From Naegleria gruberi (Eukaryota), in NCBI GenBank assembly GCA_000004985.1, contig GG738878.1: a DNA stretch of 64,000 nt. One strand, 5' to 3'. Shown here one piece after another: positions 26,472-64,000 of the stretch. The notes beneath the pieces are model-generated. The model worked only from the letters and a program-made list of their open reading frames with translations, made no database searches and was not told the DNA's origin. How positions within the stretch are numbered: the stretch's first letter is position 1; every line of letters begins with the position of its first letter. The translations under genes and the position numbers were made by a program.

Positions 26472-28177
26472 CTATTCTTCTTCCTCCTCATATGTTTCTT
26501 CTTCTTCAGCAACAACTTCTTCCTCATTCAAAGTTAATTGAGCCTTTCTATTTTCCCAAACAAGAGTAACTTCAACATCTGAGAATTCTTCATCTCTACA
26601 TTCAGATTTAACATAGAATGTGTAATCTCCTTTTGGAACTCTTCTTCTTGTACCAGTAAATACATAGAGACCATCGCATTTGATTTCCAATTCTTCACAA
26701 CTTAATTCAAGATAACTGTTGAATTTGTCCATATCATCGTGAATCATTCTCAATGCAATGAGAACGTCACAAGTTCTGTCGACTGAAAGTGTGAATTGTT
26801 GAGTGAGAATGCATTCACCTTCCTCATTTTCACAAGTTTCGTCCTTTTCATCATGTTTGAGAATTTGTCTATAGGTAGGGAAATAGGACGATTGGTGAAC
26901 GTTGTGCAAGAGTTTTGGACTGAATTGATATCCGAATGAATTCTCGTCCTTATAGAAACATTCAATATCCACAATGTGGCCAACTGTCATTCTGGAGAAA
27001 CAATTAATAACATCATCAAAATGCATCCAAAAGACACCGTCATCCTTTTCTGCCTTATTTCTCTTTCTTCTTGATTTTGCATCAGTTGCTGTATCCACAA
27101 CAGGCAAAAGAACTGTATCTTTACACAACTCCTCAATGAGTTTTGATTGTCTAGTTACTCTCAGATTGAGTTCTCTCTTAACTTTTGTTGTCATCTCCTT
27201 AGAAGTATCAGACCAAGCTCCTTTCCATTCAGTACAACCCCAAGGATTTCTCAATCTAACCAATTGATTTCCATTGTAATCACAGGCATCAATGAGCGCA
27301 TAGTAATGTCCATCAACAATACCACTCTCTGTGGTGTTGGTATCACCGAGTCCAGATTCATTTTCTGAAGCAAAACCAATTGCATTACCATTCTTTACTC
27401 CTTTAAGAATTGATTTCCAAATGTCTTCTTTACACAATCCACCAAAAGGTTCTTCTTCTACACCTTCTTCTTCTTCCTCAGCAGTTTCCTCTTCTTCCTC
27501 TTCAACATACTCGTATTCACCTTCTTCCTCTTCTTCGTATTCTTCAGTTTCTTCTTCTTCTTAGCTTCCTCTTCACAATCACATTCCTCTTGGGTACAGG
27601 AAACGTGATTCTTCAAATATTCGAATTGAGGAAGGCAACCTGTGAAAATTTGAATTCCCAAAGTACCATCTCCACCATCAGTTTTATAATAACTTCCAAA
27701 AATTTTGGCAATCGCCTTCTCAACAATGGTAGGCCACAACTCATTTGGATTCTTTGATCTAACACCCAACAAGGATCCATCAGAAGAGACTGGAACATAA
27801 TCATCAATAGTGACATATCTCCACTCGTTTCTCCAGAACAATCTCAATGTATATTGTCCCATCTCAACATTTGCCTTAACAAACAAGTGAGCAATAATGT
27901 GTGGATATCTGGCAACAGCTGCTAACGAACTCAAAATCCAACAATTTCCAAAGCTTCCCTGAGCGATATCATTCACATCAATGCCATCACAAATAATCTG
28001 TGGATCATCACAAAGTTCGGAGAGTCTCATAAATCCATTATAATTCATACCTTCAAGATCTTCGTAGCCAAAAGATGTTTCATCGGCTGGAAAATCCAAA
28101 TCAACATACGGCTCTTCAAGAGGAGCCAAGTCTTTTTGCATTGAATAAAATTCCTCCTTACTTTGATAGGTTGTCAT
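26472..28177 (-). pseudogene. Calpain-like cysteine protease, paralog 2. The reading frame is broken once inside a (GAA/AAG)n tract near 27540-27575. Either a homopolymer assembly error or a pseudogene.
   Basis: ORF 27458..28177 carries the Cys motif GSFGNCWILSSLAAV. ORF 26472..27437 carries the His motif DGHYYALIDA, the Asn motif RLRNPWG and a C2-like tail. Both frames are E/K-rich across the junction. A 1-nt indel in ...GAAGCTAAGAAGAAGAAGAAACTG... would fuse them. No GT-AG intron fits. Confidence 0.7.
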
Positions 28178-28331
28178 TGTGTCTTAACGCCAATGAGGAT
28201 GAAATGTTACGGTATTTTTTTGTAATTTTTTATGTAATGTGGTTGTACTTTCAAGTTCATAAGCCAGTATTGCAACACTGAAAGATGGCCACAATGATGC
28301 GCACAAATTAATAAGAAAGTTTCAATAATAT

Positions 28332-31300
28332 TTATTTTTCGTGGAGTTTAGAAGAAACCCAGAATAAGGAATCTTCATTTTCTGGCATATCTTCATTAAT
28401 CTTTTCCAAACACTTCTTTCTGATAAGTTGATAAGAGGCCTTCTCCTTTGATTCTGCCATATAGCTCAATACATCCTCATTCTGATCCATAAATTCTATG
28501 GCTTCCTCAAATCTCAAGCTGAGGAATAATTCTCTCAGAGCTTGATAACCAGAGCACATTTTGATAAGATCTGGATTTGCATGTTCCTTTCTAGAGAGCA
28601 CACTATAAATATTGATTGGAATGGCCTTTCCCTTAACACAAACCACATCAACCCATTTACACAAGAATTTCTTGTGAACCTTTGCATAGACATTCTCACT
28701 GATCATTATTGAGGAACCATACATGGAATTGAGAGATTCGAGACGGGATGTTGTGTTGACTGTATCACCCAGACAAGTATAATTCATTCGGTCAACAGAC
28801 CCAATATTACCTATGAAACATTCTCCTGTATGAAGTCCTATTCTTATTTTCATATTAAAATTGTCAAAGGTTCCAGCATTCTTGTTAACACATATTAATC
28901 TCAACTTTTCCTTCCACTTGTTATTGAATGGAACTAGGCCCTCCTGACAAGCAAAGGCACTTTCAACAGCAGCTAATTCATGATCTCTTATAGGAACAGG
29001 ATCATTCCAAAAGGCCATAATTGAATCCCCAATAAATTTATCTACAGTTCCTTGGGTTTTCATGATAATATCTGTCTGTTGAGTGAAAAAGTCACACATT
29101 AGCTCTACAAGTGTATCAGGCGACATTTTCTCAGTCATGTTTGTAAAACTTGCAATATCAGAAAAGTAGAGTGTGACAGTTTTCCATTGAACACCCAACA
29201 TGGCTGGTTGTTTTGACTTGACAATAGTGGCAACAATATCATATGGCACATACTTGGAGAAACTATTCAAGCCTTTGCTCATTTGATTGACTGAGGAAAT
29301 AATGGAACGCACCTCTGAGAATGTAACAGGTACCTTGTCATCGTAACCTGTTTCTATATTCATCTGAGCAAGGTTGTCTACTCGTTTCTTCAATGAATTC
29401 AATGGACTTGTAATCAGTGCACTGACACAAATAGATATCATAACGGAAACTAAAACCAATACACACGACACGGCAACTACTGTGTAGCTTGTTTCTTGAA
29501 ATAGTGAAATATAACTACGTCTTGATGTTGAGTGGATAAGTAGCCAGTCTAATCCATTTTCAGTAATTGGCTCCACAGATACAAAATGAGCCTCACCACT
29601 AGAATCAACCAGGTAAATATTATTCGGAATGTTTGTCACATTAAGAGTGCCATTGATGCCATAATCTGTAAAAAGTTTTGTTGCAATTGAGGAGATGACA
29701 GTGTCATTTGCATTCTGTGCGAGAAGTAATGTCTGAGAACCTGACGAGTAGACCTGTTTCTGCTCTATTCCTTTACTAGATCCTAAAAGAGCTCCATCTT
29801 GTCTGATAACAAAAACTCTGTGATGATCCTCCTTGGCATATTCAGAATATAATTTCGTAGATAATTCAGAAAGTGAAAATATTACTGTCAAAACTCCTGT
29901 AAATTTGTTGTTGATATAGTAAGGGATAGAACAACCAATAGCCCATTTACCTGTAATAGTAATCTGGAAAATACTTGACCATACTGCAGTGTTGGAAGCA
30001 TCTAATCCTTTGGCCATTCTCTGTTCATCTATTGCTTTTAACTCATTCACACTAGAAAGAAGAACACCAAATCTACTTGATGATAATGGCATATTTCCTT
30101 CATAATATTGAATTTTTCCATTAGTCATCCTCCAAAAGTGCAACTTGTTTGTATTGTTATTTACAATGTACCTTTCTACTAATGAACCAGTTGGTGAATA
30201 GCTAACGTCAACCCCAGAATAATTTCCGTATAAATCTACAGAAAACATTTGATAAAACATTTCAGATTGAGCCACAGTATCTCTGAATAATTTCCTTAAC
30301 ATAGATTGATATCTTTCATTGGTTAGTGTATCTGTCAAGGAGAGGTTGGGCTCCAATTGAGTGAGTACAACTCTTGCCAAGTTTAACACACTCGGAGCAT
30401 AGTTGACCACTGAGGTCATCCAATTAGTTTTCATAAGATCCACTAGCTCTGAATTTGAATCAAATGCAATAGTATTAACTACTTGATACTCAGTGGTTAA
30501 ATACCCTGCGAGCCAAACTGAAATTCCAGTCACTACCACAACAGAAAGAAATACAATGAAAAGTACTATTTTGATGCTACAAACATAGTCGAAGCATTTT
30601 CTCTTGAAAACTTCCTTTTCTTCTCCAATGGATTCACTAACAAATGGCTCGGAAACAGATCTATTGGTAGAAACAACACTATTTCTATGATTATTTACAG
30701 TTCTTATGGATCTGGGTTGATCCTCACTACCTCTGTGGGCCATGTTTCTGTTGATATGATTGACTGTACCAAAAGAAAGTTGTAATGATTGAGGTCTATT
30801 AACAGAATTCCCATTTCTTTTTTTGTTGACTTGACGATTTGGAACCTTCTTTAAAACCTGTACCATAGTTGATGCAGAAGGAAGATCATCAACGATAATT
30901 TCGTTCTCCTCTTTAAAAGAAACTTGAACATTGTTCGCAGTAAGAGGTTCTGACCCTATTTCTTCTCTTGGAGTTCCAGGAGAGACCGCCACAATTGGGG
31001 AATTGGTTAAATTTAGTGCCTCTGACTTTTGTACTGGTTGAGAAGAAGATCTTCTTCTATTAGGATCATATTTTGTGGGTGGAAATGCAAATGACATGTT
31101 TACATCTTCCTCTCCGTCATGTTCCTCCATAGACTTAATTTTCTTTCCCAATTGTTTCTGAATAGTAAGAGGATCTACAACCAAATTATTTCTTGATGGT
31201 GAGGGAATGAGTTTTGGAGCTCTTGGTTGATCTCCTTCTTGACTTTGGCTCTGCCAACTTCCTACAAGCTGTTTTCTTCTAGAAGAATTAGCTCTAAACC

Positions 31301-32558
31301 TGTCATCACCATCGTCTTGTAAGTCGTCGCTCAACTCTCCTTGTTTAAAGAGCTCTACTATTGATTTTGCAGAGCCCATCATACTGGATTTCCTTGAAAT
31401 TCCACTAGTGTTTGACAAGGAGTTTTCATTGCCAAGAGATTTTCCAAAATATGAATTAACTGGAAGAGAATGAGTAATTCTTTCGGATGTGTCTGGTGTT
31501 GCTAAATGTATTGGATTGGTAGAATTAAAAGAAGGAGTAAATGAAGTACCAGTTGAGTGAACATCTGTCATTAGAGAATTGGGAGTGCTACAAGAAGGAA
31601 TGTGTTCCTCTACTAAGGCATTCAAATTAATATTTGTAATGGCCTCATCAGGATTAATATTCTCTGCAAATGAAAATTCATTCTTGAAATTATCCATCTC
31701 CTCATGTACCTCTTGATGATCATCTTGAATGGTAGAGACAGTCAGTATACTATCGAATTGTTGTTTCTCTACCTCATCATGAATATTAGTTTCATTCGAA
31801 TGTTCATTCTCAAGACTCTTCAATTCCGATGATAGAGTGGTATTATTATTACTATTTTCTAAATTAATACTATTACTACTAGTAGTCTCCACAATCGAAA
31901 CATTTACATCTTGCTCATCACCATCACAAACATCTTCAAATCTAGTTTTCTTTTTTATCAAATCATTCAATTCAACCTTGACCGTCGGAGGAGTACTATG
32001 AAGAATACTTTTCAATTCACGATGACTCGATTCTTGTTGTTCTCGTTCTTGTCCTTGTCCTTCCACAACAGCTTTACCGAGTGTCCTACCTCGAACATTG
32101 TTTTGTTGTTGATTTAAACTTGGTGCTTTTGATTCATTTTTTGCTTCTCTTGCAAAAAGATTTCGCGCCAAAGAAACGGAAACTGTTGGCGGCTGATTAA
32201 GTTTTGCTGATAATTCATTTTCGAATAATTCTTGTTGTTGGTGTGCTGAAGGTGATTGTGGTGGTGATTGAGGCTGGGAAGAAATGATGGTGGGTTGATT
32301 TCCTCGGAAGCTTCCATTCTTGGGTGAGTTGTTTCTAGAGCTCGAATTACTACCACTTGAATTGTTGTTGGTCATTGAGGTTATTCTATTGAGTTGGAGT
32401 TGTTTCTTAGGTGATGTAGGCGGTATTGATGATGATTGGCCTGAGGAGTTTGTTGTTTGTTGATTGGAAATTATACTGGGAGAGCTAGTGTTATTGTTGT
32501 AGGATCGCCTACCATCACTAGGTGTTCGTGTATTTCGATTATTCTTCATCATTGGCAA
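28332..32558 (-). CDS. Sensor-type class III adenylate/guanylate cyclase, 1408 aa. It has about 640 aa of N-terminal low-complexity sequence, then TM1, an extracellular domain of about 300 aa, TM2, a HAMP-like linker and the cyclase domain.
   Basis: Intronless 4.2 kb ORF. The transmembrane helices are IVLFIVFLSVVVVTGISVWLAGY and VVAVSCVLVLVSVMISICVSALIT. The cyclase core contains FSDIASFT, FIGDSIMAFWN, IRIGLHTGECFIGNIGS and CLGDTVNTTSRLES. Confidence 0.8.
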   Translation of the reverse strand: MPMMKNNRNTRTPSDGRRSYNNNTSSPSIISNQQTTNSSGQSSSIPPTSPKKQLQLNRITSMTNNNSSGSNSSSRNNSPKNGSFRGNQPTIISSQPQSPPQSPSAHQQQELFENELSAKLNQPPTVSVSLARNLFAREAKNESKAPSLNQQQNNVRGRTLGKAVVEGQGQEREQQESSHRELKSILHSTPPTVKVELNDLIKKKTRFEDVCDGDEQDVNVSIVETTSSNSINLENSNNNTTLSSELKSLENEHSNETNIHDEVEKQQFDSILTVSTIQDDHQEVHEEMDNFKNEFSFAENINPDEAITNINLNALVEEHIPSCSTPNSLMTDVHSTGTSFTPSFNSTNPIHLATPDTSERITHSLPVNSYFGKSLGNENSLSNTSGISRKSSMMGSAKSIVELFKQGELSDDLQDDGDDRFRANSSRRKQLVGSWQSQSQEGDQPRAPKLIPSPSRNNLVVDPLTIQKQLGKKIKSMEEHDGEEDVNMSFAFPPTKYDPNRRRSSSQPVQKSEALNLTNSPIVAVSPGTPREEIGSEPLTANNVQVSFKEENEIIVDDLPSASTMVQVLKKVPNRQVNKKRNGNSVNRPQSLQLSFGTVNHINRNMAHRGSEDQPRSIRTVNNHRNSVVSTNRSVSEPFVSESIGEEKEVFKRKCFDYVCSIKIVLFIVFLSVVVVTGISVWLAGYLTTEYQVVNTIAFDSNSELVDLMKTNWMTSVVNYAPSVLNLARVVLTQLEPNLSLTDTLTNERYQSMLRKLFRDTVAQSEMFYQMFSVDLYGNYSGVDVSYSPTGSLVERYIVNNNTNKLHFWRMTNGKIQYYEGNMPLSSSRFGVLLSSVNELKAIDEQRMAKGLDASNTAVWSSIFQITITGKWAIGCSIPYYINNKFTGVLTVIFSLSELSTKLYSEYAKEDHHRVFVIRQDGALLGSSKGIEQKQVYSSGSQTLLLAQNANDTVISSIATKLFTDYGINGTLNVTNIPNNIYLVDSSGEAHFVSVEPITENGLDWLLIHSTSRRSYISLFQETSYTVVAVSCVLVLVSVMISICVSALITSPLNSLKKRVDNLAQMNIETGYDDKVPVTFSEVRSIISSVNQMSKGLNSFSKYVPYDIVATIVKSKQPAMLGVQWKTVTLYFSDIASFTNMTEKMSPDTLVELMCDFFTQQTDIIMKTQGTVDKFIGDSIMAFWNDPVPIRDHELAAVESAFACQEGLVPFNNKWKEKLRLICVNKNAGTFDNFNMKIRIGLHTGECFIGNIGSVDRMNYTCLGDTVNTTSRLESLNSMYGSSIMISENVYAKVHKKFLCKWVDVVCVKGKAIPINIYSVLSRKEHANPDLIKMCSGYQALRELFLSLRFEEAIEFMDQNEDVLSYMAESKEKASYQLIRKKCLEKINEDMPENEDSLFWVSSKLHEK

Positions 32559-32776
32559 TCAAGTATAATGAAAGGAGTTTGGGATTCTTGGCTCAATGAT
32601 AAAGTTCTCTCTTTTTTTCTGTACAACTTGAAGGATGACATTAAGAGTTTGAAAGCAATCTAGCGTTGTACAATAAAAACTCACTACATCTCATAATTTT
32701 CAACAACCTTTTTTATCCTTACTTGGGAGAGATCTGTAAACCTGAAAATTTCTTACAAGGAAAGTGCGAAAGTAAT

Positions 32777-45305: not shown

Positions 45306-45609
45306 TTTTTATTAGAAACTTAACGAATTAATTATTTATTATTAGAAAACGTGATATTAATTAATTTACAAATCATTTCTACTTTGATTTTCACAAGTAC
45401 ACTGTCCATCACATTCTCGATCATTGTTGTGAGATTTACGAATCAAAGACCATTCACGTTGATATAAAAAACATGATCAATATCTTGTGAATAATTCTTT
45501 TTGGCAATTGATCTACCTTAATATTTTTCCCTTTATATTTGTTGCTACATTTAAATTCGAATATGGAATACAAAGTTTCTAAAATAAAAATTAATTGGAA
45601 TGGAAAATT

Positions 45610-45700
45610 TGATGAGAGTGGGATTTGAACCCACGCCCTTGCGGAACACGGTATTAATAATACCTTAACGTGTCGTCTTAGACCACTCGACCATCTCACC
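45610..45700 (-). tRNA. tRNA-Leu(AAG) with an 11-nt intron at the canonical 37/38 position. The intron is 45652..45662 on plus-strand coordinates.
   Basis: The minus strand reads GGTGAGA TG GTCGAGTGGTCTAAGAC G ACACG TTAAGG [TATTATTAATA] C CGTGT TCCGCAAGGGC GTGGG TTCAAAT CCCAC TCTCATC A. It has a type-II long variable arm and the eukaryotic Leu D-loop GAGTGGTCTAAG. The acceptor stem has 7 bp including one G-U. Confidence 0.85.
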
Positions 45701-45813
45701 ATTGAAAAATCGAGTTTTTACTAATATAATATTTTTTGCTTAGCATTGAACTTGGAATATTCAATTTTGAAATAATAATAAAAATAAAATTAAAGTTCAT
45801 TAAGTTCAAAAAA

Positions 45814-47971: not shown

Positions 47972-48027
47972 GGTATTCAAAGAAAATAACACTTGTTTAT
48001 AAAATCAAGGCTAGGTGAAATACTCTT

Positions 48028-50195: not shown

Positions 50196-51937
50196 TTATA
50201 AATAATGACTTTTGTAAAAATCACTGCGCTTTTGAACAATTTTCAATTCTTTAGGTCGGAAACTTTCATGCAGTTGACTCTTAGTTTGCCATTTAATAGC
50301 TCTGGATGCTGCTTGAAGTTCTAGAGTTGCGACATTCTTAGACAGTTGCTCAATTTGTTGAATCTCCTTATCTTCTTCGTCTGTATTATCTGTTGGCTTT
50401 CTTTGTCCCTTATTTTTTGTGGCAGCTCCTGACTTGGGACGTTTCTCATTTGCCTGAACTGGCGTTTTTCTCAAATCTTCTTGCTCTTTTTCAATTCTTT
50501 CCTTCTTTCTTTTTTCAAAATCTGCTCGTTTATCAATGAGTTGCTTTTGAAGATCGTGTGAGTTGATGAATTCCTCCTCTGATTTCATTTCACATATGAG
50601 GTAGAATAAATCTTGGAAGGAAACTTCATTTTGGGCCACAATTTTCCTAAAGAGAGCCAATTTCTTCTTTTCATCTTCTGTGAGTGAGTTTGGTTTTTCC
50701 TCTATCAATTTGAACCATTTCTCTGTGAATTTGGTTATTCCCAGAGAGTCCAGCAATGCATTCATTTCTGATGCCTTGATGTTGGTCATCTTTCCTGCTT
50801 TGAAAGATGGGTGATTATTCTTAATTAAATTAATAATCAAGCCCCTTTCATTGCCCGTCAACAATAGACCTTCAAAATCTCTATAAACATGGGAAAGACT
50901 TTCAAATATTGTATCAATAGAGCTCTTTTCTTTTTCTTCATGCTCTAAGTATTGCTTCACTTTGCTTTCGAGAAGAGTTTTTTCCATTCTGGCTCGTTCT
51001 TCGTCCTCCTTCTTTACGTTCATTACAGCTCGTTCTTTCTTAATGTTGTTGGCGTGCTTACATGCTAATTCAGCAGTAGCTCCCATGAATGAAGGTGGTT
51101 TGATAGTACTGAGTCTCATTGTCTTGTGTTCCAAAACATGAGAAGGAACAGTTTTTCCAAAGGCAATTTCTCTGCTGAGAGTATTTCGATTCTGCTGATA
51201 TGTGAGTGCAAGTTCTTCTCTCTCTATGGTAGTAATTTCCACCCTATCAAAAACTTGCAATACTGGAATATCCAAAACCACTCTAGCTCTATATTCATTC
51301 TTTGGAAGAGTGTCACAGAGTGGATTCCCAAATAGCGTTAATTGTTTCAAATATCTCATTCCCTTAATACATTCCATAACTTCATCCAAGCTCTTCAGAT
51401 TATTTTCGTGCAATAACAAAGTCTCCAAGAATTTGAAATTACAAAAATTATTAACATCCAATGACTCGATTCTATTCTGTTGCAAGTAGAGATGTTTCAA
51501 TCTCATACAACCAGTTTTTACTGGTTTATCAAGTATTGATTTCGATCCCAAGATTGCTCTCTCAACGTTCGGGGATCTATCAAATTTGTAACCTTCTTCA
51601 ATTTATTTCCATTGAGCCACAACTCCTCCAACATTATTAATCGACTAAAATTAATATGAATTTCGGTCATTCCTCTCTTTCCCAAATGTAATTCCTTCAC
51701 GTGGCGAAAATCCATTCTACCAATCTCACCCATCGGATCCACTAGAACTGGTGTATTTTCATCCACAATTTCCTTAGCAATCGGAGGCACACCAACCTCC
51801 TGTAACCATTCCTCAAGAATCCTTTGATAGATTTTTTCTACTGCCTCCTCCACATTTTTCTTCTTCTCCTCGAGTCTCTTCTTCTCATCCTCAATTTGTT
51901 TCTTCGACTTCTTGGGTGTAGTTGGTTTTGGCGGCAT
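50196..51937 (-). CDS. Leucine-rich-repeat plus coiled-coil protein. The two ORFs overlap at 51518..51551 out of frame, an apparent 1-nt frameshift near a C4 run at 51571-51574.
   Basis: Upstream ORF: ...MLEELWLNGNKLKKVTNL. Downstream ORF: ...CMRLKHLYLQQNRIESLDVNNFCNFKFLETLLLHENNLKSL with a long E/K coiled coil. Adding one C to the C4 run joins ...NLIDPPNVERAILGSKS... in frame. Confidence 0.55.
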
Positions 51938-52057: not shown

Positions 52058-52777
52058 TTACTTGTTCATACAGTTCAACTTGTCACTTCCCTTACTCTTC
52101 TTAAGACATGCAAACTTGACATCCAATGATCTCAATAATCCATATAAATTCTTTGGTAATCCTTTGAAATACTTTTTGGAGACGTGGCAAGTTTTAATCT
52201 TTTTCAAATTCTTTCTACATTTGGAAAGGGATGCCAGCATTTCATTGGTGTGTTTTTGATACATTTGTTGGAATTGTTTCACCATTTTCTTAAGAGATGA
52301 GATTCTATGTTTCATTCGCTTAATTTTGGAATGGAAGCACTTCTTGTTAGTTTTGGCATTTTGGAAAACTGTATATTGTCTTGAAGTTAATTGACTTTTG
52401 ATTTGTTCAACTCTAGAAATTGCCTTCTTTGATTGCTTAAATTTTTTCTTCAACTTTATCAACTTTTTCTTAACTTGGTGCATCATTTTCCTGAATTTTC
52501 TTCCTCCTCTTTGAGCTTTTCTCAATTTCCTATTGATTTTCATCATTGATATTTGGCATGTTTTCTTTACAAGTTTCCTTCTCCATTGATAACAAGGGCT
52601 ATCTGTAGACGAATTAATTTCCTTAAGAGCAGAGGAGGTAGATTTAGCAACAACACTACTCAAAGTAATGGCACTGCTTGATTCAACTTGTTCAATTGTT
52701 GTTTGTATGAACAATAAATACAAGATTATCAATGACAAGCCAACAAGACATTTCCTGTAGGGATTGTATTGATACAT
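52058..52777 (-). CDS. Secreted basic (K/R-rich) protein of 239 aa with an N-terminal signal peptide.
   Basis: ATG at 52777. The hydrophobic leader is LVGLSLIILYLLFIQ. Confidence 0.45.
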   Translation of the reverse strand: MYQYNPYRKCLVGLSLIILYLLFIQTTIEQVESSSAITLSSVVAKSTSSALKEINSSTDSPCYQWRRKLVKKTCQISMMKINRKLRKAQRGGRKFRKMMHQVKKKLIKLKKKFKQSKKAISRVEQIKSQLTSRQYTVFQNAKTNKKCFHSKIKRMKHRISSLKKMVKQFQQMYQKHTNEMLASLSKCRKNLKKIKTCHVSKKYFKGLPKNLYGLLRSLDVKFACLKKSKGSDKLNCMNK

Positions 52778-52829
52778 TTTTTATAATAATAATTAGCTCT
52801 GTAAAATTAATTGATGGGGAGAGATTGAT

Positions 52830-53972: not shown

Positions 53973-54833
53973 TTTTTTTGATTGAAATTAATTTTATTAG
54001 AAGCAATTTTCAATCAGTTTATTCATTTTGTTAATGATTGAATTGTTGGTTTTGTGAAGTGCCTTATTAGTTGTTGGTGGCGAGGCGTTTATCCAATCGA
54101 ATGGCTGAGTAGGGAGTTGAGTTTAATCTTGTAAAATGACCTTAATGAGAAGGACACTTCAAGAGATTCGAATTTTAAAGAAATTGATTGGTGTGAAAGA
54201 TGAAAATTGATTGGAAATCTCTCTTATTTCTTATTGTATGGTGCATGTATGCATTGTATCAAAACTAAACACCTATCAAAGATCGATTTACTCTAATCAA
54301 AAATTTCACTTTACATTAAAAACAAAACAGTTCCGATAATGGTGTACTTGTTGATAAAACATGTACATGTTTGCATTGAAGGTAATGAAACCATTATCCA
54401 AAGTAACATTCAATTTTTTTATCATCCCATTCTCGGAATCATAACACAGGGTTTTTGATATCGGAACGAAGAACAATAAGAAGGAAAACAGTCATCAAAA
54501 CCAAGCAGCAAAAACAAATGACAGGCGTTTTCTAAAAAAAGCGGCATTGTAATCCGAATAATAATAGAAAACAGACCAAAAGTGAACGATGTGTACGGCT
54601 TTGACGTCGTTAAAAATCAAAATTACCACTCAAACATTTTTAAAATTTAAAATAAAAACACAGAAAAAATTTCTTCAGTCTTGTTTGCACAAACTCGCTA
54701 CATACACAATTTTGAGCAGTTTTTCTAACGGCGTCTATACAACGAACAAAATCTAGAGATTTTCTAAACAACAACAACAATACAATCATCATCGTCTGTT
54801 TAGACTAGTAAATATAAGAGTAAAGTATAGAAA

Positions 54834-56381
54834 ATGAACACTACTATGTTTGATATTAAGAGTAAAATCAAGCAAATTAAAAACACCGTTCTTCAGATGA
54901 CTCCACTGGAGATCAAAGTCAGAGAATGTACAAGTAACGATTCTTGGGGAGTTAAATTGTCTGATAAATTAGAAGTTGCTGATCACAGTTTCAATTATGA
55001 AGACTTCAAGCTCATCTTCTCTGTTATCAGAATCAGATTGGCTGACGTTGGAAAGGATTGGAGACACGTCCAAAAGGGTATCCAACTTGTTGAATTTTTG
55101 GTCATTAACGGTTCTGAAAGATGTTTGGATGAAGCCAGAGACATGCAATCACTTATTCGTCAAATGAAGAACTTTAAATATGTTGATGATGACGGAAAGG
55201 ATTGGGGTGTTAACGTAAGAGATGCTGCTAAACACTTCTTGGAATTCATCAAGGATGAAGAAAAGATCAAGGAAGAAAGAGAAATTGCCAAACAACAAAA
55301 GGAAAAATATGAAGGTTTTTCTAGATCTGAAGCCAAGCACAAGTCTCGTACAACAGGTAGTTCTTCATCAGAAAAGAAGAAGAAGGAAAAGAAGCCATCC
55401 TATGATGATGAATATGATGCTCCTAAGAAGTCTACTTCTCGTTCTAGCTTTGAAGAAGAAGAATATGAACAAGAAGAAAAGCCAAGAGCTTCTTCTCCTG
55501 TCAATCAATCTGGTAGACCAAGAAAGCCATCTACTGGTACAACCCCATCATTCCAAACTACATCTCAACCAGTTAAACAAAAGGAAGATACTCTTATTGA
55601 TTTCTTTGATACACCAGTTACCACAACAACAAACCAATATAACAATAACAACTTTGGAAATAACAATGGTTTCGGAAATAATGGTTTGGCCAATAACTCT
55701 GGCTGGTCTCAACCAACTCAACCTGTCAATACTGGATTCAATCCAAGAACTGCTAGTACCCAACCAACAAACTCTGGATTTAACCCAAGAGGTAACAATG
55801 GTGCTTCATTCAACACTGGTGGTAATGATTTCGAAGCTAACTTTGATAGCTCTGGTTTTGATGATGGTTTCGGAACAAATGATGCTTTCAATAATGCTTC
55901 AGGTCAAGAAAAGAAGGATTCTACCTTGTTTGATATTTCAAGTGGTTTGGTTAACTTGGATCTTAATGAAACCAAGCAACAAACAACATCTCAACCAGTT
56001 AATCCATCTCAACCATCAGCTAACATGTCGTTGAAGGAATTGAAGAGATTGCAAGGAAACAATACACCAACCAAGCCTCCAGTCATGAATAATACCACTC
56101 CATCTTTCCCATCCAACACATCTTTCCCACCAAACAACAACTTTGGAGGTGGTTATCCAAATAACAATGGTTTCAACAATTACCCACCAAACAACAACAA
56201 TAACTTTGGTGGTTATCCAAACAACAACATGCCACCAAGAACTGGCGGAAATTATCCACCAAATAACAATTTTGGTAACATGCCACAACCAAGCGGATAT
56301 GGATACAATAATCAACCTGTCAATAATAATAGACCACCACAAAACAACAACAACAATGGAGGAGGTTTCGACTTTTTCTAA
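54834..56381 (+). CDS. ENTH-domain (epsin-like) protein with a long N/G/F-rich C-terminal tail.
   Basis: The N-terminal ENTH region is VRECTSNDSWGVKLSDKLEVADHSFNYEDFKLIFSVIRIRL...WRHVQKGIQLVEFLVINGSERCLDEARD. The tail has NNNFGG/YPNNN repeats. Confidence 0.75.
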   Translation: MNTTMFDIKSKIKQIKNTVLQMTPLEIKVRECTSNDSWGVKLSDKLEVADHSFNYEDFKLIFSVIRIRLADVGKDWRHVQKGIQLVEFLVINGSERCLDEARDMQSLIRQMKNFKYVDDDGKDWGVNVRDAAKHFLEFIKDEEKIKEEREIAKQQKEKYEGFSRSEAKHKSRTTGSSSSEKKKKEKKPSYDDEYDAPKKSTSRSSFEEEEYEQEEKPRASSPVNQSGRPRKPSTGTTPSFQTTSQPVKQKEDTLIDFFDTPVTTTTNQYNNNNFGNNNGFGNNGLANNSGWSQPTQPVNTGFNPRTASTQPTNSGFNPRGNNGASFNTGGNDFEANFDSSGFDDGFGTNDAFNNASGQEKKDSTLFDISSGLVNLDLNETKQQTTSQPVNPSQPSANMSLKELKRLQGNNTPTKPPVMNNTTPSFPSNTSFPPNNNFGGGYPNNNGFNNYPPNNNNNFGGYPNNNMPPRTGGNYPPNNNFGNMPQPSGYGYNNQPVNNNRPPQNNNNNGGGFDFF

Positions 56382-56413
56382 ATAAATTATCTATTAATCT
56401 ACTACATTGTATC

Positions 56414-56450
56414 TTATTATTTATTATTATTTATTATTATTTATTATTAA
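56414..56450. repeat. Short AT microsatellite, a 10-nt ttattattta-type unit repeated about 3.5 times, in the 3' flank of the ENTH gene.
   Basis: The sequence is cttattatttattattatttattattatttattattaa. Confidence 0.6.
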
Positions 56451-58070
56451 TTTTGTTTTTCGAGTGAGGATGAGGGAGAATTATTTTGGGTGGATGGAGT
56501 ATTGTTTGAAATGTTGGCAGACACTACAAAATCTTTCATTTTTGATGCCACATGTCTGAAAAAACTATGGAAGGCAAGGAAATTACCCTTACCTCTTCTA
56601 AATTCAATAAGTATTACGGTATCTGAAACAGTTCTGAGAATGGCTACATTAAGAGTAATGACCGAATCAGCCAAGTTCACATAGCACTTGATCAAATTGG
56701 TTCCTTTAAATTTTGGATTGGCTCTTTCTTCCCTTAATATTTGAAAAACTCTTTCCGAAATATCGTCAGCTTTTCCAATAGCAACTAATCTGGTTTGTCT
56801 TCGAATTAATAAATTATCTTGTCCTGTTGCCATTTTTGAAATTGATCCCATCACAAACTGAGATGCTATATCAAAAGCATTCATTCTAACCTCTGTTGGT
56901 TGATTCGTATTACTATTACTCCCCTGAGGAGGAGGTTGATCTATTTCCTTATAAAAACTATCCTTTACAGCTTCCTTCAAATCATTGTTGGAAATTTCAA
57001 TTTTGGGTGATTGAAGAACAACTCCAAAATCTTCCCTATATCCTATTTGGAACCATTTAGAGGCCTTTATATTTGGTATGGAATATCTCTTTTTTGGATT
57101 AACTTGCAACATTTTCGATATTAAATCCTTAGCTTCTTTTGACAGATGTGATGGGAATTCAACTTTTCCACTTTCTATTTTTTTAAATAAATTGTTAATG
57201 TTTCTATCATCGAATGGAAGTTCTACAAAATATTGAGTTAATAATCGCATCTTTTTCAAAATAATACATACTTCCTGTTAGCATTACATAGAGAATAACT
57301 CCCATCGACCAAATATCTGCTAAAAATCCATCATATCCTTTTTCCTTAATAACCTCTAAAAGAATATATATTCATGCACATGATGTAATTATTGTTGTTG
57401 TTTCATGAAGTTTGAATGTTGTTGTTATTGAATGGAAAATTGCATTTGAGATTGTGAGCCTCACTTTAGAACCATCAACAACTTACCTGGTGAGACATAG
57501 TTCGGAGTACCACATGTTGTTTTCAAGAGCTGTGACTTTCCCAGCTTGTTAGGCACAATACTACTCAAACCAAAGTCCTATTATTGTTGTTTAATTACAA
57601 TCCATCATTCTCTATCAATTACATACCGTTATTTTCAGTTTATCAAAAGAGTCTAAAAGTAAATTCTCTGGTTTCAAATCTCTGTGAGCGATACCCTGAT
57701 TGTGGCAATATTCGATTGCTGATACTAATTGATGAAAGTATCGTCTTGCAGTAATTTCATCAAACTTTTCAGCAGCCACAATTCTATCAAATAATTCTCC
57801 TCCTGTTACTAGTTCCATTATTACATAAATATTATTTTCAGTTTGTAGTACTTCTTTTAGATTTACAATATTAGGATGCTTCATAATCTTCATGATGGCA
57901 ATTTCTCTTTTTAATTGTGTTTCCATCTGTTCCTTCTTAATATAATTTAAATTCATAATCTTGATCGCATACGTCTCTCCAGTTTCCAAATCCCTCCCAA
58001 ATTTTACTTTTGAATATTTACCCTGGCCGAGCGTCCTCATAATTTCATAATTCGCAACAATCTTGACCAT
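56447..58070 (-). CDS. CIPK-like Ser/Thr protein kinase: SnRK/AMPK-related kinase domain, NAF/FISL-like motif and C-terminal regulatory region. Exons are complement(join(56447..57222,57271..57355,57487..57577,57627..58070)). There is a 1-nt frame problem in a G4 run at 57300-57304.
   Basis: Exon 1 has [11 protein letters not shown]...YAIKIM...[12 protein letters not shown]. Exon 2 has DFGLSS...[11 protein letters not shown]. Exon 3 should read [28 protein letters not shown], but the sequence has GGGG where GGG is needed. Exon 4 has LPFDDRN...[14 protein letters not shown] and then [16 protein letters not shown], the NAF-like motif. Introns are 49, 131 and 48 nt with GTATGT or GTAAGT donors. 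Confidence 0.75.
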
Positions 58071-59055
58071 TTTTTTTTATTAAGGTTTTTACAGTTTCCA
58101 GAATGATGATGTCGATTGAAGGAGAGACCAATCACCACTTCCAAACCAATCCGCAACAAGACCTCAATTTTTAAACAGCAACAACAGTAGCAGTGGCAGC
58201 AACATTAGCACTCAACATCAACTCGTGTTATTTGGAGTCAATTACCAGCCACATCTACAGTTGGTTCCAGCAGAACATTTGTTGGCGGTTGTTCTTCTTC
58301 TGAGGTATGAACACAAGTTCAAGGCGAACGAATACGGGCGGCCTAGGACAGAACGTGATGTTGATGCTACTGGTGTTTCGACTCAGGGGCCACAAGTTCA
58401 TCGGCTTTGACAATGCATCACGGCAATACATGATGATATAAAAGAGGAAATGAAAAAGTTTATTGAAATATTAAATATTTAATTGGATAGTGAGTGTTGT
58501 TTGGTTTTGAGGCAAATCAAGTTAACTGATGACCTTTAATAACTGTTATTGAGGCAAGAATTTCCTTATTTAAAGGAAGACGAATAAGGTTATTAAAAAA
58601 TAATTATTTTATGTTTTGTAAATTGAGATTTAGAATCCATCCCTATGAAATGATTTGAAATATTAAATTATGAAAATTATTGAAATCAAAGAATTATCTA
58701 AATAAGTAGTGTTACTATACTAATTTGATGATTATTGAATAAAAATGGATTTGTCGAGTCTCTTCTTAGTAAATGTTTACGGCTTACATTTAAGGTCTTT
58801 AAAATACTAACCATGGCATTCGCAGTACATTTACCAAAGCAAAAAGGAAATTGTAAAGATTACTTAACTTCAAAACATGTTGCAATTCGTTGCAAAGGAC
58901 GTATTATTCTCAATGGATGATAATTCTTCGAGTGACTGTCCATCTCAAAAAGCACAGTTTAATTGCTGTATGAAAAAGATAAACGTTACATTCAGAGATA
59001 ATTGTAATCCAAATGTCATTTCCTTCCTTGAACAGAAAAAAAATATCAACGTGAA

Positions 59056-59128
59056 GCTGGCGTAGCTCAGTCGGTAGAGCGTTGGTCTAATAAGCCATTG
59101 GTCGCCGGTTCGATCCCGTCCGTCAGCA
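59056..59128 (+). tRNA. tRNA-Ile(AAT). The anticodon stem and T-stem each carry one non-Watson-Crick pair.
   Basis: Reads GCTGGCG TA GCTC AGTCGGTA GAGC G TTGGT CTAATAA GCCAT TGGTC GCCGG TTCGATC CCGTC CGTCAGC A. The D-arm and T-loop are classic and the anticodon loop is CTAATAA. Mismatches are at 27-43 and 50-64. It could be a slightly degenerate copy. Confidence 0.6.
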
Positions 59129-59295
59129 AACATTTTATGAATTAAAACAATAATGTTTACCCTTTTAATTAAAATAAAAATTATATTCTATTTTTTGTTA
59201 AAATCTATTTCCATATTTTTTTGTCATTTAAAATAGAGAACAACTTTCCATGTTACCAATCACCAAACATCAAACATATTACAAATCAAAAAAAA

Positions 59296-59852
59296 ATGTC
59301 TCTCTCACAATACGATACCCGTGAACAAGCTGAAAAAGAAGGAGCGGTCGTTGCAAAGATTATCTTTGATAATGTTACTCTCGAGCAAGTAATACAAATC
59401 ATTTCCGATTATAAAAGTTATACCGAATTTGTTGAAGGAACAAACAAGGTTGAATATAAGGATACTGTTGAAGGTACTGATGGAAAGTGTTTGGATGTTT
59501 GGTGGAATGTCACTGTTGGTGGATTGAAAACTGTGGAATATACTTTGAGATTGTGTGTTTTTGAAGGTATGAAAATATTATAATAATTATTAGAATGTAA
59601 CCTAAATTATCATGATTTTTAATAGATGGATTATCTTGGCAAGAGACTGATCATGGTCCATTTAAGAAGAATCGTGGTGGATGGAAATTGAAACCAACCA
59701 CAGATGGAAAGGGAGTCGAAGCCACCTATATTGCTCTCATTGATTTCAATGTTTGGTGTCCTGGTTTCATCAAGGATTTCCTTGTTGGAAAGGGATTGAC
59801 AAAGACATTGGAAGCATTCAAGAAGAGACTTGCTGAAAAATTCAAAAATTAA
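59296..59852 (+). CDS. SRPBCC (Bet v 1 / START / polyketide-cyclase-like) fold protein, about 165 aa. Exons are join(59296..59566,59626..59852).
   Basis: ATG at 59296 after a run of A (MSLSQYDTREQAEKEG...). A 59-nt intron (GTATGA...TTAATAG) joins ...LRLCVFE-D-GLSWQETDHGPFKKNRGGWKLKPT...ALIDFNVWCPGFIKDFL. Confidence 0.55.
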
Positions 59853-60042
59853 TTCATAGAGTGGATTACAATAAATTCATCAGCAGATGAATTTAGAGTT
59901 TTATTTAAGTGGATTTTCTTAAGGGTAATGTTCAGAATTGACTGCGATTGGCGCTATTGGCGCAGTTGAGTAAAGTGGACATTTTCACAAACTCTTTGAA
60001 AGAGTTTCGAACAAAGAGTATTGAAATTGGAACTGAAAAAAA

Positions 60043-60871
60043 ATGATTCAAGGACATTATGGACCTGCAGGTTTATTACACTTCTTCTTTAGAGATATCT
60101 CCTTCACATGGCTAATGATTTCCACTCAGATCATTGACATGGTCTTTTTTGCTTTCGTATTGTGTTGTAAATTCGTTTGTAAAATGGAGATTCACTCATG
60201 TCCACAACCATTAGCTTGTTTGGAGTACAGTTCCTATAATGTTTCACTCATGAGAGAGAATCAAGCTGTTCCATTCAATGCTCAGAATGATATTTCACAT
60301 AGTTTGAGTGGAACTTTGATTTGGACTTTGGTTTTTACTGGAATTTATGTTTTGGTCAATTGGAGAAATAATTCTAGATCATTTGCTTCATTGTATGGTA
60401 TTTTCTTTTTGAGTATTTCGTCTCATTGGTTGTTGGATGTTGTGGTGAGAAGGTAAGAAATAGTTTTTATGAATTCTTATTCGAAATGTTATTAGAAATG
60501 ATGTTGCTGTTTTTCCACCATTCACATCGAACAAGATTGGACTTGGTACTTGGCAACACTTGTCAAAATTGAGTAATTATCTCATTGAAGTTGGAAGTGC
60601 CGTATTAGGATGGTTGTTTTTCTTCTTGGTAAGGAAATCATCCAAGTTGACAAAAGGTTTTTGGATTTCTTCACTTCTTTACTTTCTAATGACATTTGGA
60701 CTAATGTATGGAGTTTATTTTGCTGTGGATTATTCTAAAATTGCTGATTCTGTTCAAGATGGTTCTCCAACTTCACCTGATCAAATTCCATTCACCTATT
60801 TCACTTATGTACTTGTTGGAATACTTTCGTATTTCATGGAGAGAAAGGTCAGAGAAATTAAGACTGAATAA
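60043..60871 (+). CDS. Multi-pass membrane protein. Hypothetical, possibly DUF457-like His/Asp membrane hydrolase. Exons are join(60043..60452,60496..60871).
   Basis: ATG at 60043 after an A-rich leader. A 43-nt intron (GTAAGA...TATTAG) joins ...HWLLDVVVR-R-NDVAVFPPFTSNKIGLGTWQH... in frame. Several transmembrane helices. Confidence 0.5.
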
Positions 60872-61156
60872 TTATACCAACTTTCAACCCTCCCTATTAA
60901 ATTTCAATAATAAACAGATCAACTGAAATTGTATTCTTCCAATTACCACAGTTTTAATTTTTCTCGAAACTTGTTTTGTAAAAAAGGCAATTTGTCAAAA
61001 TTTGGGGAGTTGTGTGAAATATTACAATAATCAAAATATCTCACACTGCGCAATCCAACAGTCGAACGCTTGCACTATCCACATTGTGCGATTTCACCCG
61101 CACCTTATTTATCCAAAGATTACGCGCGTATCTTTGATAGTATCTCAATTTAAAAA

Positions 61157-64000
61157 ATGAAGACTTTTATTGCTACTGTCTTGTGGTTATCACTCATTTC
61201 CACCTTCCTTAGTTTAGTCCTAATTGTTACTGTTGTGAAGGGATTGAAAGTCGAACAAGAAACCTTTCGTTTACAACATTTTTCAAAGGATTACTCTGTT
61301 GATTCAATTATTCAACCAGTTTATCAAACATCAATGAAGTATTTACATGGCTCTGTTCTTTCTCTACTCTTCAATTCAGCTGCATGTCAATGGAATGGAT
61401 CCTATAGTTTAACATTATTAAATAATGATTATTTCCCAACCAATAGACCATACAATGATGTTATCACACGTTTGGAATCTGATTTAATTTACCTTGATTT
61501 GTCTAAATTAACATGTGTTAACAATTTAGAGCAAAAATATGCAATCATTACAATCAAGTTGAAGAGACGTGATATTGTGAATATTGATCCTTACAATTTG
61601 AGTGTGTTTAGTTTCGTTTTGAAGGATAGGTCACTGGTTTATGAGAATGTATCATTTTCAAATGGGGGAGTGAATGATTTGGAGAATGAATTCTCTTTTT
61701 CTTTGAAACAAGTATTTGAAAGTGGAAGAAACTATTTTGGTTTCCAATACTGGGTTGATTCTGATTACCATTCTCAAACTGGTATTCAAATTCGCTACCC
61801 AAAGGACATTACACTTTTAAATTCACATTTTATATCATCAATGGAGTTAAAATTTTCATACAATAGAGCTCCAATCATTAATCCAAATTTGGTCAACTCA
61901 ATTCCAGTAATTTCAGTATATAACGAATTTTATCAAGTGGAAGACAAATCAATTCCAAAACCATTCGATTATATTCTTTCAAAATCCAGAACTAGTTTAC
62001 AAAATAGAGGATTGAAACCTCTCATAGAGGAGAAATCAATGAGATTTCACTATGATGAGAGAAATGGGTTTAGAGATTCGAGTAATAATGTTTATTTCAT
62101 TGATCCATTCTCATTGGTTTGTGCCTTTTCATTTGGAGGGGATGATTATTTGAAGATTGATGAACAATCGAGAGTAATTGAAACTAAACATTCGAATTAT
62201 TTATTAGAATGTTCATCTAGTGAAATAACTGAAGATTATTCATGGACAATTTTGGCAAAGAAGAGTGATAAAAGACAGAAAGTGAATTGTTACTATGGAA
62301 AACCATGCCCATTATCCACTGATTCAATCTCTTCATTGACTTTATTTGCAGAAAACGATTTCGAAACTCTTAATATTTGGCCAGAACTTTCCTCAAACAT
62401 TTCTGGAAATTTGCTTTTGAAAAATCTTGAGAATTCTGAGGAATTGACGACTTATTCGCCGCCAAATACTTATCAGAAGCCACTCACATTGATTAATTGT
62501 TTTCAAGTTGATTTTTCACAATTGGTAATTTCCAAAAAAGGGCAAATCAACTTTGAGTTTAAAAAATCAACACAACCAAACGAAGATCCATTTTCAACAA
62601 GAATTTCAATTCTGGACAAACAAACCAGTTCCTTCTTTCTCTATCAAAAAGATTCTCCTACCAATTCAGATCTCAAATGGTCAATCAATCCATTGAATGA
62701 AAATGTTACATTTGGATTATGGAGCTATTCTCAATCTGAAGCAAAATTAGGTGATTTAGTGTTTGTCAATTATCCAAGAAATGTCAATTATCAATTGACA
62801 GATTCTCTCAGTATGAATGTTTACTTTAGTGGAGTTTCCATCTCAACTCCTAATTCATATCATAGACCCCACTTTACAATCAATCAATTCACACCAAATA
62901 TTTCATTACTGAATTATGTTATTCTTCAAAGTTTCCAAATGAATTATGGCGAAGGTTTGAATCATCTCGAATTTGATGAAGGAAGAATTTTCAATTTTTT
63001 TCCCACCACAACTCTGGTTGACCTTAATGGTAATAAGGCACAAGTTAAATTAACTGACCTGTCATGTGTCTATGTTTTGAAAAGTGAGAATTCTCAATAT
63101 TCGATTATTGAATTGAGTGATTTATATCCGAAATTCAGTAATGATGATGGAAGCTATCAATTGGATTGTTCAGAGGATGTTAGAGATGATGAATTTGTTT
63201 TCATGCTTGTTGGAAAACAATTTGAAAGAAAGTTTGTTTCTGGTGTTTATGGAATTCCAATAGAAGTGGATTCTGCACAGATTGTTTTATTCGAAACTAG
63301 GTGGTCTCCTTTGGATAAGTTTACAATTTCGGTTGATGTGAATACTGTTCTGAGAGGTGAATACATATTTATGGAAAAGCAAATTGAAGATTTTAAAGAT
63401 TATCCACTTTCAAATACGAATCAAAAGCCGTTGAATATTCTTGGAATCTTTGAACTTGATTATTCGAAAGTGACTTCTTCACTTGACATTGTTTCAGAAA
63501 ATTTGAATGGTTTATTTATTGAATTCCAAAAGAAAAGCTCCTTAACCAACACAGATCCTTCCTCTTTCAGATTTTTCAAACTCAATTCTTTCACAAAAGA
63601 CATTTGACTTGATGTTCAATGATCAACCATTCACAGGTCCTTGGGAGTTGATTGTTAGTGGAACAGGAAATGAGAAATCAATGATATTCGCTATTGCTGC
63701 ATTCCAAGACATTTCAGCATTGTTTAATCATGAATATCCACTTTCATATTCAAGACAATTACAATTCACAGTTGACCAAAGTGAATTAATGTATTCTTTT
63801 CAATTATCATCTTCCTTATCAACTTTATATCCTACTTTCCAATTGGATCTTAATACAACTCATTCCAATCAAACTATTATTGATCCAATTACAAAGATTG
63901 AATATGTCAAAATTCATTCATTTTCCATTCAGCAAGATATTCTAAACTATAATGTAAAATCGACCAGAAAGTTCACCTTCTCCTCAATTGGTTCCTCTCT
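61157..64000 (+). CDS. Large secreted or type-I membrane protein with an internally duplicated module of about 55 aa. It is partial and runs off the window. There is an apparent 1-nt frameshift at an A4 run near 63593-63596.
   Basis: Signal/TM start MKTFIATVLWLSLISTFLSLVLIVTV. Two modules repeat: YQKPLTLINCFQVDFSQLVISKKGQINFEFKKSTQPNEDPFSTRISILDK and NQKPLNILGIFELDYSKVTSSLDIVSENLNGLFIEFQKKSSLTNTDPSSFRFFKLN. After the TGA at 63605-63607 the +1 frame stays open to the window end. Deleting one A from ACAAAAGAC joins ...SFTKTFDLMFNDQPFTGPW.... Confidence 0.55.

Follow-up and report, generated by a model that had tools for sequence, protein, structure and literature searches.

Why do several conserved and otherwise recognisable genes in one short stretch of a reference genome change reading frame part of the way through? 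The stretch analysed here, referred to below as the window, is 64,000 nucleotides of DNA that agree in sequence with the reference assembly of Naegleria gruberi NEG-M. A preliminary description of it counted frameshifts at seven sites in at least six genes, each in a homopolymer run or an (AAG)n tract, and preferred systematic homopolymer-length error in the assembly to many independent pseudogenes. We find frame breaks at four of the seven sites and in four of the six genes, the remaining three sites and two genes being explained by ordinary introns, and add a fifth break in one of the four. Comparison of the two frames with relatives, paralogues and internal repeats suggests that these five breaks are probably wrong base counts in the draft consensus and not mutations.

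A pangenome paper of 2023 lists a single N. gruberi genome, NEG-M, with 'Sanger' as its sequencing technology (PMC9928731). The window holds approximately 35-40 genes at 34% G+C, a composition from which one out-of-frame stop is estimated per 14 codons or so, and it contains many A/T runs of 6-10 bases. Two N. gruberi proteins, P0001 and P0028, share one 395,411-bp record; they are identical, break zones excepted, to the calpain and leucine-rich repeat (LRR) proteins, respectively, that we rebuilt from the window, and each is reproduced exactly from window DNA with one bridging 'intron' apiece. Exact-protein look-ups with window ORFs and with P0001 matched no record, the protein collection searched contained no other N. 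gruberi copy of the calpain or LRR gene, and metagenome scans with the LRR profile and with a 29-nt calpain flank returned no close relative. Throughout, the position of a break is the best-scoring site in a position scan, and its zone is the span in which both frames are open (Table 1).

Table 1. Genes, frame breaks and introns in the window
Feature	Position	Strand	Details
Canonical intron, bromodomain gene	12144-12190		
Canonical introns, TBCD			three introns
Canonical intron, calpain 1	19891-19844		
Calpain-family cysteine protease ('calpain 2')	26472..28177	-	two reading frames; Peptidase_C2 Pfam; P0001
Calpain break zone	27461..27560	-	both frames open; consensus one base short (or two extra)
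Spurious 20-nt 'intron' of public model P0001	27491..27510	-	GTATGT..GAAG; bridges frame break
Prefoldin subunit 3, intact	36724..37484	+	exon 36724-36798, intron 36799-36974, exon 36975-37484
Kinase-like gene	37678..39943	-	three frames, two one-base breaks; HND/DFE motifs; Cys-rich C-terminal tail
Kinase-like 3' break zone	about 38058..38085	-	consensus one base short
Kinase-like 5' break	39440..39455	-	consensus one base short; fifth break, absent from preliminary description
LRR (U2A'/LRR_9-type) gene NAEGRDRAFT_58509 (P0028)	50196..51937	-	split over two frames
Spurious 116-nt 'intron' of public model P0028	51477..51592	-	GTTACA..AACAG; deletes 39 orthologue-retained residues
LRR break zone	51521..51602	-	frame overlap; consensus one base short
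CIPK-type kinase, intact	56447..58070	-	464-aa CDS, three canonical GT..TAG introns
Canonical intron, polyketide-cyclase-like gene	59567-59625		
Canonical intron, YdjM-like gene	60453-60495		
Repeat protein, signal-peptide-like N-terminus	61157..64000	+	one break; continues past window end
Repeat-protein break zone	63546..63604	+	frame overlap; consensus one base extra (or two short)

The two flagged genes that prove to be intact show how readily introns can pass for frameshifts. In prefoldin subunit 3, for which breaks had been placed at 37021 and 37081, the frame is unbroken: there is one 176-nt intron (GTACGT..AATAG), the frame stays open over 36975-37484, and residues 19-192 of the spliced 194-aa protein align continuously to residues 25-189 of human prefoldin subunit 3. 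The CIPK-like kinase, flagged at a G4 run at 57300-57304, has an intact coding sequence with introns at 57626-57578 (49 nt), 57486-57356 (131 nt) and 57271-57223 (49 nt), and its residues 5-441 align with Arabidopsis CIPK23 from end to end (E=1e-93). The 11 verified introns of the window measure 43-176 nt and start with GTA[ACT]G[TA], and 11 of 11 end in TAG. All other adjacent same-strand ORF pairs considered as further breaks resolved into canonical introns, and an apparent ORF at 45457-45717 was accounted for by a tRNA gene. No further break was found among the ORFs checked in the first 26 kb, and a codon-usage frame map of the window was too noisy for picking up more; the five breaks are thus unevenly distributed, all of them falling in the second 37 kb.

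The calpain break, which had been proposed at about 27555, is borne out by the Pfam domain itself, which is split over two frames, with positions 1-171 of Peptidase_C2 encoded in the frame 27461-28183 and positions 174-272 in the frame 26475-27560. The best fit, at 27552-27561, is the start of an (AAG)4 tract, where GCT is followed by AAGAAGAAGAAG, and calpain paralogues have an acidic linker that agrees with the E-rich frame from the beginning of the break zone onwards. Since the catalytic Cys lies 5' of the break and the His/Asn region 3' of it, both halves would be needed for activity. P0001, the NCBI entry 'calcium-dependent cytoplasmic cysteine proteinase [Naegleria gruberi]', is 100% identical to the rebuilt calpain outside the break zone, and it matches the window DNA exactly only once 27491..27510 is taken out; if the break is an error, some 30 residues of the resulting model would be lysine-rich sequence translated out of frame. 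We reject this segment as a true intron, as its 20 nt fall short of even half the 43 nt of the shortest verified intron and it ends in AAG, not TAG.

For the LRR gene, a break had been placed at about 51572, in a C4 run. A break does lie within the overlap of the two frames, but the C4 run (51571-51574) scores 583-592, below the 616-620 of the best fit at 51536-51551 (TTGGGATCGAAATC), which lies 20-35 nt away in a G3/A3 context. Orthologues from N. fowleri and N. lovaniensis and one from a metagenome keep VTNL.D of the upstream frame as well as K.GC.RLK.LYLQ of the downstream frame. The 116-nt 'intron' of the public model is likewise rejected, its donor and acceptor being off the local consensus GTA[ACT]G[TA]..TAG. 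The expectation that automated annotation would fragment the broken genes therefore fails for the two public models examined, which instead cross the frame changes by means of spurious 20-nt and 116-nt introns, in the process garbling or dropping approximately 30-40 residues.

The kinase-like gene, the middle piece of which has a Pfam Pkinase match, is collinear over all three of its pieces with P0033 and P0034 from Willaertia magna and P0035 from N. lovaniensis. Its 3' break, previously put at about 38060, falls where two frames overlap at 38061-38082 and is upheld at approximately 38073-38078 (best fit 38076-38078, adjoining an A4 run at 38073-38076). Here the upstream frame reads ..IFNMVKNTK and the downstream frame RSERLTARECL, and the three relatives conserve both, keeping ..IFNM.K.. 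and R(I/L)TAREC.., respectively. At the 5' break, which is the one that we added, the scan peaks at 39440-39443 in GCGTAG, a site that has no homopolymer, with a score of 449 versus 414 at a neighbouring AAA; the upstream frame gives LSALYDFKL and the downstream frame VGISKLI, where relatives show LSALYGFKLNVNVAISKI. A 32-nt GTATGA..TATTAG intron was considered at this position and rejected, as it would remove the conserved YDFKL..VGIS.

The break proposed in the repeat protein, at an A4 run near 63594, also stands, with a best fit at 63595-63601 (A4 at 63595-63598) that leads by a small margin. An alignment of the protein's internal repeats crosses the break (E=5e-7). The GT..AG options available here have GTTT donors only, and repeat-homologous residues would be lost with them; a 61-nt intron, for example, has a GTTTAT donor and would remove residues homologous to the first repeat.

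Taken one by one, the five breaks have the properties of consensus indels: a single-base change of frame, long, open and conserved frames on either side, and an absence of further disabling lesions. Every break is flanked on both sides by residues that are conserved in relatives or paralogues (for the repeat protein, in the internal repeat), and the frames 3' of the breaks are open for 362, 464, 134, 468 and at least 151 codons, the last as far as the end of the window. The consensus would be one base short at four breaks and one base over at the other, perhaps through errors of base calling or consensus building where coverage was thin; for the (AAG)n tract, the consensus might also have been pieced together from two alleles with repeats of unequal length. 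N. gruberi itself most likely carries the four broken genes in intact form. At about 1e-4 per base, five indels over 64 kb would not be out of line with a draft-quality Sanger consensus, whereas plausible densities of loss-of-function alleles or culture-acquired mutations lie far below this rate. Several points weigh against the reading of the breaks as consensus errors: at about 8x depth, a Sanger consensus normally does better than one indel per 13 kb; all the breaks detected lie in the second 37 kb of the window; one gene with two breaks is a pattern expected of a true pseudogene too; and the reported heterozygosity of N. gruberi makes allele-specific frameshifts possible. For the four genes, nonetheless, assembly error is the most economical explanation, as the preliminary description had argued, even though two of the genes on which it based that argument are intact.

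The rival that survives best, which we consider unlikely, is that the breaks are genuine mutations of NEG-M, either heterozygous null alleles caught in the consensus of a heterozygous, possibly polyploid and long-cultured clone, or very recently fixed pseudogenes. The expected density of loss-of-function alleles or culture indels is orders of magnitude below five per 64 kb. It would also be necessary to suppose that 4 of some 35-40 genes had been disabled without suffering any other lesion, their downstream frames staying open over 134-468 codons and still aligning to relatives, in genes that are conserved across Naegleria and Willaertia. The pattern of multiple lesions looked for as the mark of a pseudogene is not seen, there being one lesion in each of three genes, two in the kinase-like gene and none besides. 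In favour of the mutational reading, the kinase-like gene has two breaks and degenerate HND and DFE motifs and so may be dispensable. In addition, the deposited sequence does contain the breaks and public gene models mirror them, and slippage mutations likewise favour A4 and (AAG)n contexts. Allele-specific frameshifts are possible because N. gruberi is reported to be heterozygous, Naegleria being described as a heterozygous diploid with variation in ploidy (PMC9928731).

A platform-specific, systematic miscount of homopolymers, of the type known from 454, Ion Torrent or Nanopore data, is quite improbable. Two of the best-fit sites do adjoin A4 runs (38073-38076 and 63595-63598) and one is in (AAG)4. 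The runs concerned, however, are of 3-4 bases only, and the many runs of 6-10 bases in the window are involved in none of the detected breaks. The fifth break, at 39440-39443, is without a run, the LRR break fits better at G3/A3 than at C4, and three of the seven sites originally named are not frameshifts. Moreover, in the window's unbroken coding sequence the chance of meeting a run of at least 4 bases is 0.28 in 22 nt, 0.58 in 59 nt, 0.69 in 82 nt and 0.76 in 100 nt; runs are therefore expected by chance in zones of this size, and their presence at each site carries no excess. Among the five breaks, no homopolymer enrichment beyond chance was found. With best-fit contexts of A4, A4, (AAG)4, G3/A3 and none, the breaks are not tied to any single sequence context. 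Sanger sequencing is not known as a platform with a run-length bias. The assembly is given as Sanger (PMC9928731), and the attribution to systematic homopolymer-length error is not supported.

Still less probable is that the breaks are read through by biological decoding, whether by short or non-consensus introns, programmed ribosomal frameshifting, or transcript slippage or editing. Frame-restoring GT..AG segments can be found at every break (20, 26, 32, 32 or 116, and 61, 64 or 109 nt), and two of them open with good donors, GTATGT and GTATGA. They are, however, either too short (20, 26 and 32 nt, below the local minimum of 43 nt) or off-consensus in the donor (GTTA/GTTT), those of 61 and 116 nt departing from consensus at both ends, and those of 20, 26, 61 and 116 nt end in AAG or CAG, not TAG. 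The candidate introns also encode YDFKL/VGISK, TIFNMVK, VTNLID..KTGCMRLKHLYLQQ, EEYEEE and FIEFQKKSS..DPSS, each of which is matched in relatives, paralogues or the internal repeat, so that conserved in-frame residues would be lost. Spliceosomal introns do not account for the five breaks; boundaries, lengths and the loss of conserved residues are all contrary. None of the five best-fit sites has an in-frame slippery heptamer of the form X XXY YYZ. The sole heptamer inside any break zone, A AAT TTG at 51587 in the LRR zone, was rejected as a slip site with a score of 546 versus 620 at the best position. To our knowledge, neither nuclear insertional editing nor frequent frameshifting has a precedent in Heterolobosea. 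Least probable of all is that the base counts are right and full-length proteins are made by recoding (transcript slippage, insertional editing, or frameshifting without a canonical slippery site), which, if true, would be a feature of nuclear gene expression not previously described in Heterolobosea.

The value of reading the breaks as wrong base counts lies in annotation and data quality, and its biological interest is low. Provided that the breaks are errors, the N. gruberi reference proteome, which is in wide use, contains internally corrupted entries: the calpain model would contain a fake 20-nt intron, and NAEGRDRAFT_58509 would be without 39 conserved residues of its LRR domain. Such artefacts spread to UniProt, to orthologue sets, to intron-length statistics and to comparative work in which Naegleria serves as an early-branching reference. 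Should the local rate hold genome-wide, a sizeable fraction of the gene models would suffer, which would make a case for polishing with modern reads. In intron-bearing genomes, changes of frame are to be checked against introns before frameshifts are called.

Among known systems, the breaks most resemble the indel errors of draft whole-genome shotgun consensus, in which single-base frame changes appear in otherwise intact conserved genes, and the public models resemble the artefacts familiar from draft assemblies, in which frame-restoring GT..AG 'introns' (here 20 and 116 nt long) corrupt or remove conserved residues. Unlike the usual errors of Sanger drafts, the breaks described here are locally dense, with 5 in 37 kb, and uneven across the window. 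Some of them adjoin short A runs, as do the homopolymer errors of 454, Ion Torrent and Nanopore, from which they differ in the Sanger platform, the runs of only 3-4 bases, the one runless site and the lack of excess over chance. With unitary pseudogenes and heterozygous loss-of-function alleles they share frameshifted conserved coding sequences, two shifts occurring in one gene; unlike these, they come without further lesions, with long conserved downstream frames and in too many genes for so small a region. Finally, the breaks recall programmed -1 ribosomal frameshifting in that, at four of the five, the frame has to move by -1; the resemblance ends there, as no heptamer lies at a best-fit site and the only one in a zone is contradicted by the orthologue alignment.

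Four of the seven one-base frameshifts that the preliminary description had placed in six genes correspond to real breaks, and a fifth, absent from that description, lies towards the 5' end of the kinase-like gene; the other three claims concern intact genes that contain introns. Every real break shows an overlap of two long open frames on one strand, with homologues agreeing with the upstream frame as far as the overlap and with the downstream frame beyond it. In the calpain gene, for example, positions 1-171 and 174-272 of Pfam Peptidase_C2 fall in different frames, and the catalytic residues are split over the two halves, both of which are needed. The acidic linker (EEYEEE..) of N. gruberi and N. 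lovaniensis paralogues agrees with the E-rich calpain frame as soon as the zone begins, and scoring all break positions against paralogues gives a best fit at 27552-27561, in GCT/AAGAAGAAGAAG. At the 3' break of the kinase-like gene, ..IFNMVKNTK and RSERLTARECL are both kept in relatives (two from Willaertia magna, one from N. lovaniensis), with a best fit adjoining the A4 run 38073-38076; at the 5' break the upstream frame reads LSALYDFKL and the downstream frame VGISKLI, the relatives' match is LSALYGFKLNVNVAISKI, and the best fit, 39440-39443 in GCGTAG, involves no run. The LRR gene is also truly broken, but the C4 run 51571-51574 that had been proposed scores only 583-592, below the 616-620 of the best-fitting stretch, 51536-51551. 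In the repeat protein, an alignment of the internal repeat crosses the break (E=5e-7), and the A4 run 63595-63598 fits best by a small margin. To keep the frame, the consensus would need one base fewer here and one more at each of the other four breaks.

Frame breaks, verified introns and spurious introns in the window
Feature	Gene or model	Position	Strand	Length or remark
Break zone	Calpain	27461-27560	minus	
Break zone	Kinase-like gene, 3' break	38061-38082	minus	
Break zone	Kinase-like gene, 5' break	39440-39455	minus	
Break zone	LRR gene	51521-51602	minus	
Break zone	Repeat protein	63546-63604	plus	
Verified intron	Bromodomain gene	12144-12190		
Verified intron	Second calpain	19891-19844		
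Verified intron	Prefoldin	36799-36974		
Verified introns (three)	CIPK-like kinase		minus	49, 131, 49 nt
Verified intron	Polyketide-cyclase-like gene	59567-59625		
Verified intron	YdjM-like gene	60453-60495		
Verified introns (three)	TBCD			
Spurious intron	P0001	27491-27510	minus	20 nt, masks frame break
Spurious intron	NAEGRDRAFT_58509 (P0028)	51477-51592	minus	116 nt, masks frame break

The window is gene-dense, with a G+C content of 34% and ORFs in the standard code. Joining two neighbouring minus-strand frames gives a calpain whose sequence equals, except in a short zone, that of the NCBI protein 'calcium-dependent cytoplasmic cysteine proteinase [Naegleria gruberi]' (P0001), and the LRR gene is identical to its public model (P0028) except at the break zone; both models lie on a single 395,411-bp record. 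Both proteins are reproduced without a mismatch once one GT..AG segment each is taken out of the window DNA, and the window therefore matches the N. gruberi NEG-M reference over the calpain and LRR genes. The NEG-M assembly is the sole N. gruberi genome in a 2023 pangenome list, where the technology is given as Sanger (PMC9928731), and the same RefSeq accession was still in use in a 2025 paper (PMC11702301).

We consider consensus error the probable cause of the breaks. Apart from the breaks, every broken gene is intact and conserved in Naegleria and Willaertia, and the downstream frames stay open for 362, 464, 134, 468 and, in the repeat protein, at least 151 codons, with an out-of-frame stop expected about every 14 codons (an estimate from base composition). 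Five breaks per 64 kb amount to ~1e-4 indels per base, a density within reach of a draft Sanger consensus and far higher than can plausibly be expected of loss-of-function alleles or of indels acquired in culture. On the same evidence it is unlikely that the breaks are genuine frameshifts, which would probably be allele-specific. Two breaks in one gene count against error, as does the clustering of all five in the second 37 kb; the ORFs checked over the first 26 kb yielded none, and local read depth in the draft may account for this unevenness. Consensus error may also have had an additional route at the (AAG)n tract, since Naegleria has been reported to be heterozygous (PMC9928731): a mosaic of two alleles differing in repeat length would yield a wrong count. 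The breaks are most likely a draft-assembly artefact.

Although assembly indel error, as first suggested, remains the likely reading, a systematic homopolymer effect is not shown. The best-fit contexts are A4, A4, (AAG)4, G3/A3 and none. Runs of at least four make up 6.9% of bases in the unbroken coding sequence of the window, and a 22-100 nt zone contains such a run by chance with a probability of 0.28-0.76. The window holds many A/T runs of 6-10 bases, none of which is implicated in any detected break, and the Sanger origin itself argues against a systematic run-length bias. The breaks may slightly favour short A runs, but this would not discriminate between error and slippage mutation.

The presence of ordinary introns alters how the frameshift claim is to be read. 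Eleven introns in the window were counted as verified, in that joining their flanking frames gives an open, homologous product. They measure 43-176 nt (8/11 are 43-52 nt), their donors are GTAAGT, GTATGT, GTATGA, GTAAGA or GTACGT, and the acceptor is TAG in all, never CAG or AAG. This tight local grammar (GTA[ACT]G[TA]..TAG) is usable as a filter on gene models. GT..AG segments of frame-restoring length occur at all five breaks, and as introns they fail: those of 20, 26 or 32 nt are shorter than every verified intron, those of 116, 61, 64 and 109 nt have GTTA or GTTT donors, and all would remove residues conserved in homologues or in the internal repeat. Nor does ribosomal slippage account for the breaks: an in-frame X XXY YYZ heptamer occurs in one zone only (LRR, 51587), and a shift there fits the orthologues less well, scoring 546 vs 620 at the best position.

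Annotation had been expected to fragment these genes; in both genes checked (calpain and LRR), the public models instead hide the break behind a spurious intron. P0001 carries ~30 out-of-frame lysine-rich residues (AKKKKKLKNTKKRKKVNT..) in place of the paralogues' acidic linker, and P0028 lacks 39 conserved residues, including VTNL.D .. K.GC.RLK.LYLQ, which is kept in the LRR orthologues of N. fowleri and N. lovaniensis and in one from a metagenome. Some 30-40 residues per entry are thus corrupted or deleted in widely used database records, a finding of practical value for re-annotation and of low biological interest.

Several other genes merit mention. The kinase-like gene (37678-39943, minus), which has Willaertia magna relatives, reads HND for HRD and DFE for DFG and is therefore probably a pseudokinase; its Cys-rich, CXC-like C-terminal tail is shared with the N. 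lovaniensis relative. A single-exon adenylate/guanylate cyclase of 1408 aa (28335-32558, minus) has a weak match to a bacterial MCP-like PDC sensor domain (E=0.001). An ORF with a bacterial-type ydhR mono-oxygenase domain (24851-25237, minus; PF08803, E=7e-44) shares its frame with a Gig2/PhyH-like dioxygenase ORF (23246-24820, minus), whose ATG follows ~80 nt downstream; this may be a candidate for lateral transfer, or else two genes that are fused or packed very closely. Packing is unusually tight at 40226-43480 (plus), where ribosomal protein L4, F-box-like and unknown ORFs follow one another in one shared frame with gaps of 9-25 nt between open frames. Of two tRNA genes, that at 59056-59128 (plus) is tRNA-Ile(AAT); the other, a 93-nt tRNA-like gene (45609-45701, minus), receives no type from ARAGORN, is perhaps intron-bearing or has a long variable arm, and explains why an 87-codon frame seems to be open at 45457-45717.

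The two genes wrongly taken to be frameshifted, prefoldin 3 and the CIPK-like kinase, were misread because their introns were overlooked. In prefoldin 3, a single open frame (36975-37484) spans both supposed sites, 37021 and 37081; with a 25-codon first exon it gives a 194-aa product, residues 19-192 of which form one continuous alignment with residues 25-189 of human prefoldin subunit 3 (E=4e-38). The G run at 57300-57304 in the CIPK-like gene (56447-58070, minus) lies within an exon and is read through normally, and splicing gives a 464-aa CDS whose residues 5-441 align with Arabidopsis CIPK23 (E=1e-93). The gene encodes a full-length CIPK of the plant type, comprising the kinase domain and the C-terminal regulatory region, and the alignment with CIPK23 covers 437 residues; this is consistent with a calcium-signalling kinase of the CBL-CIPK type outside plants.
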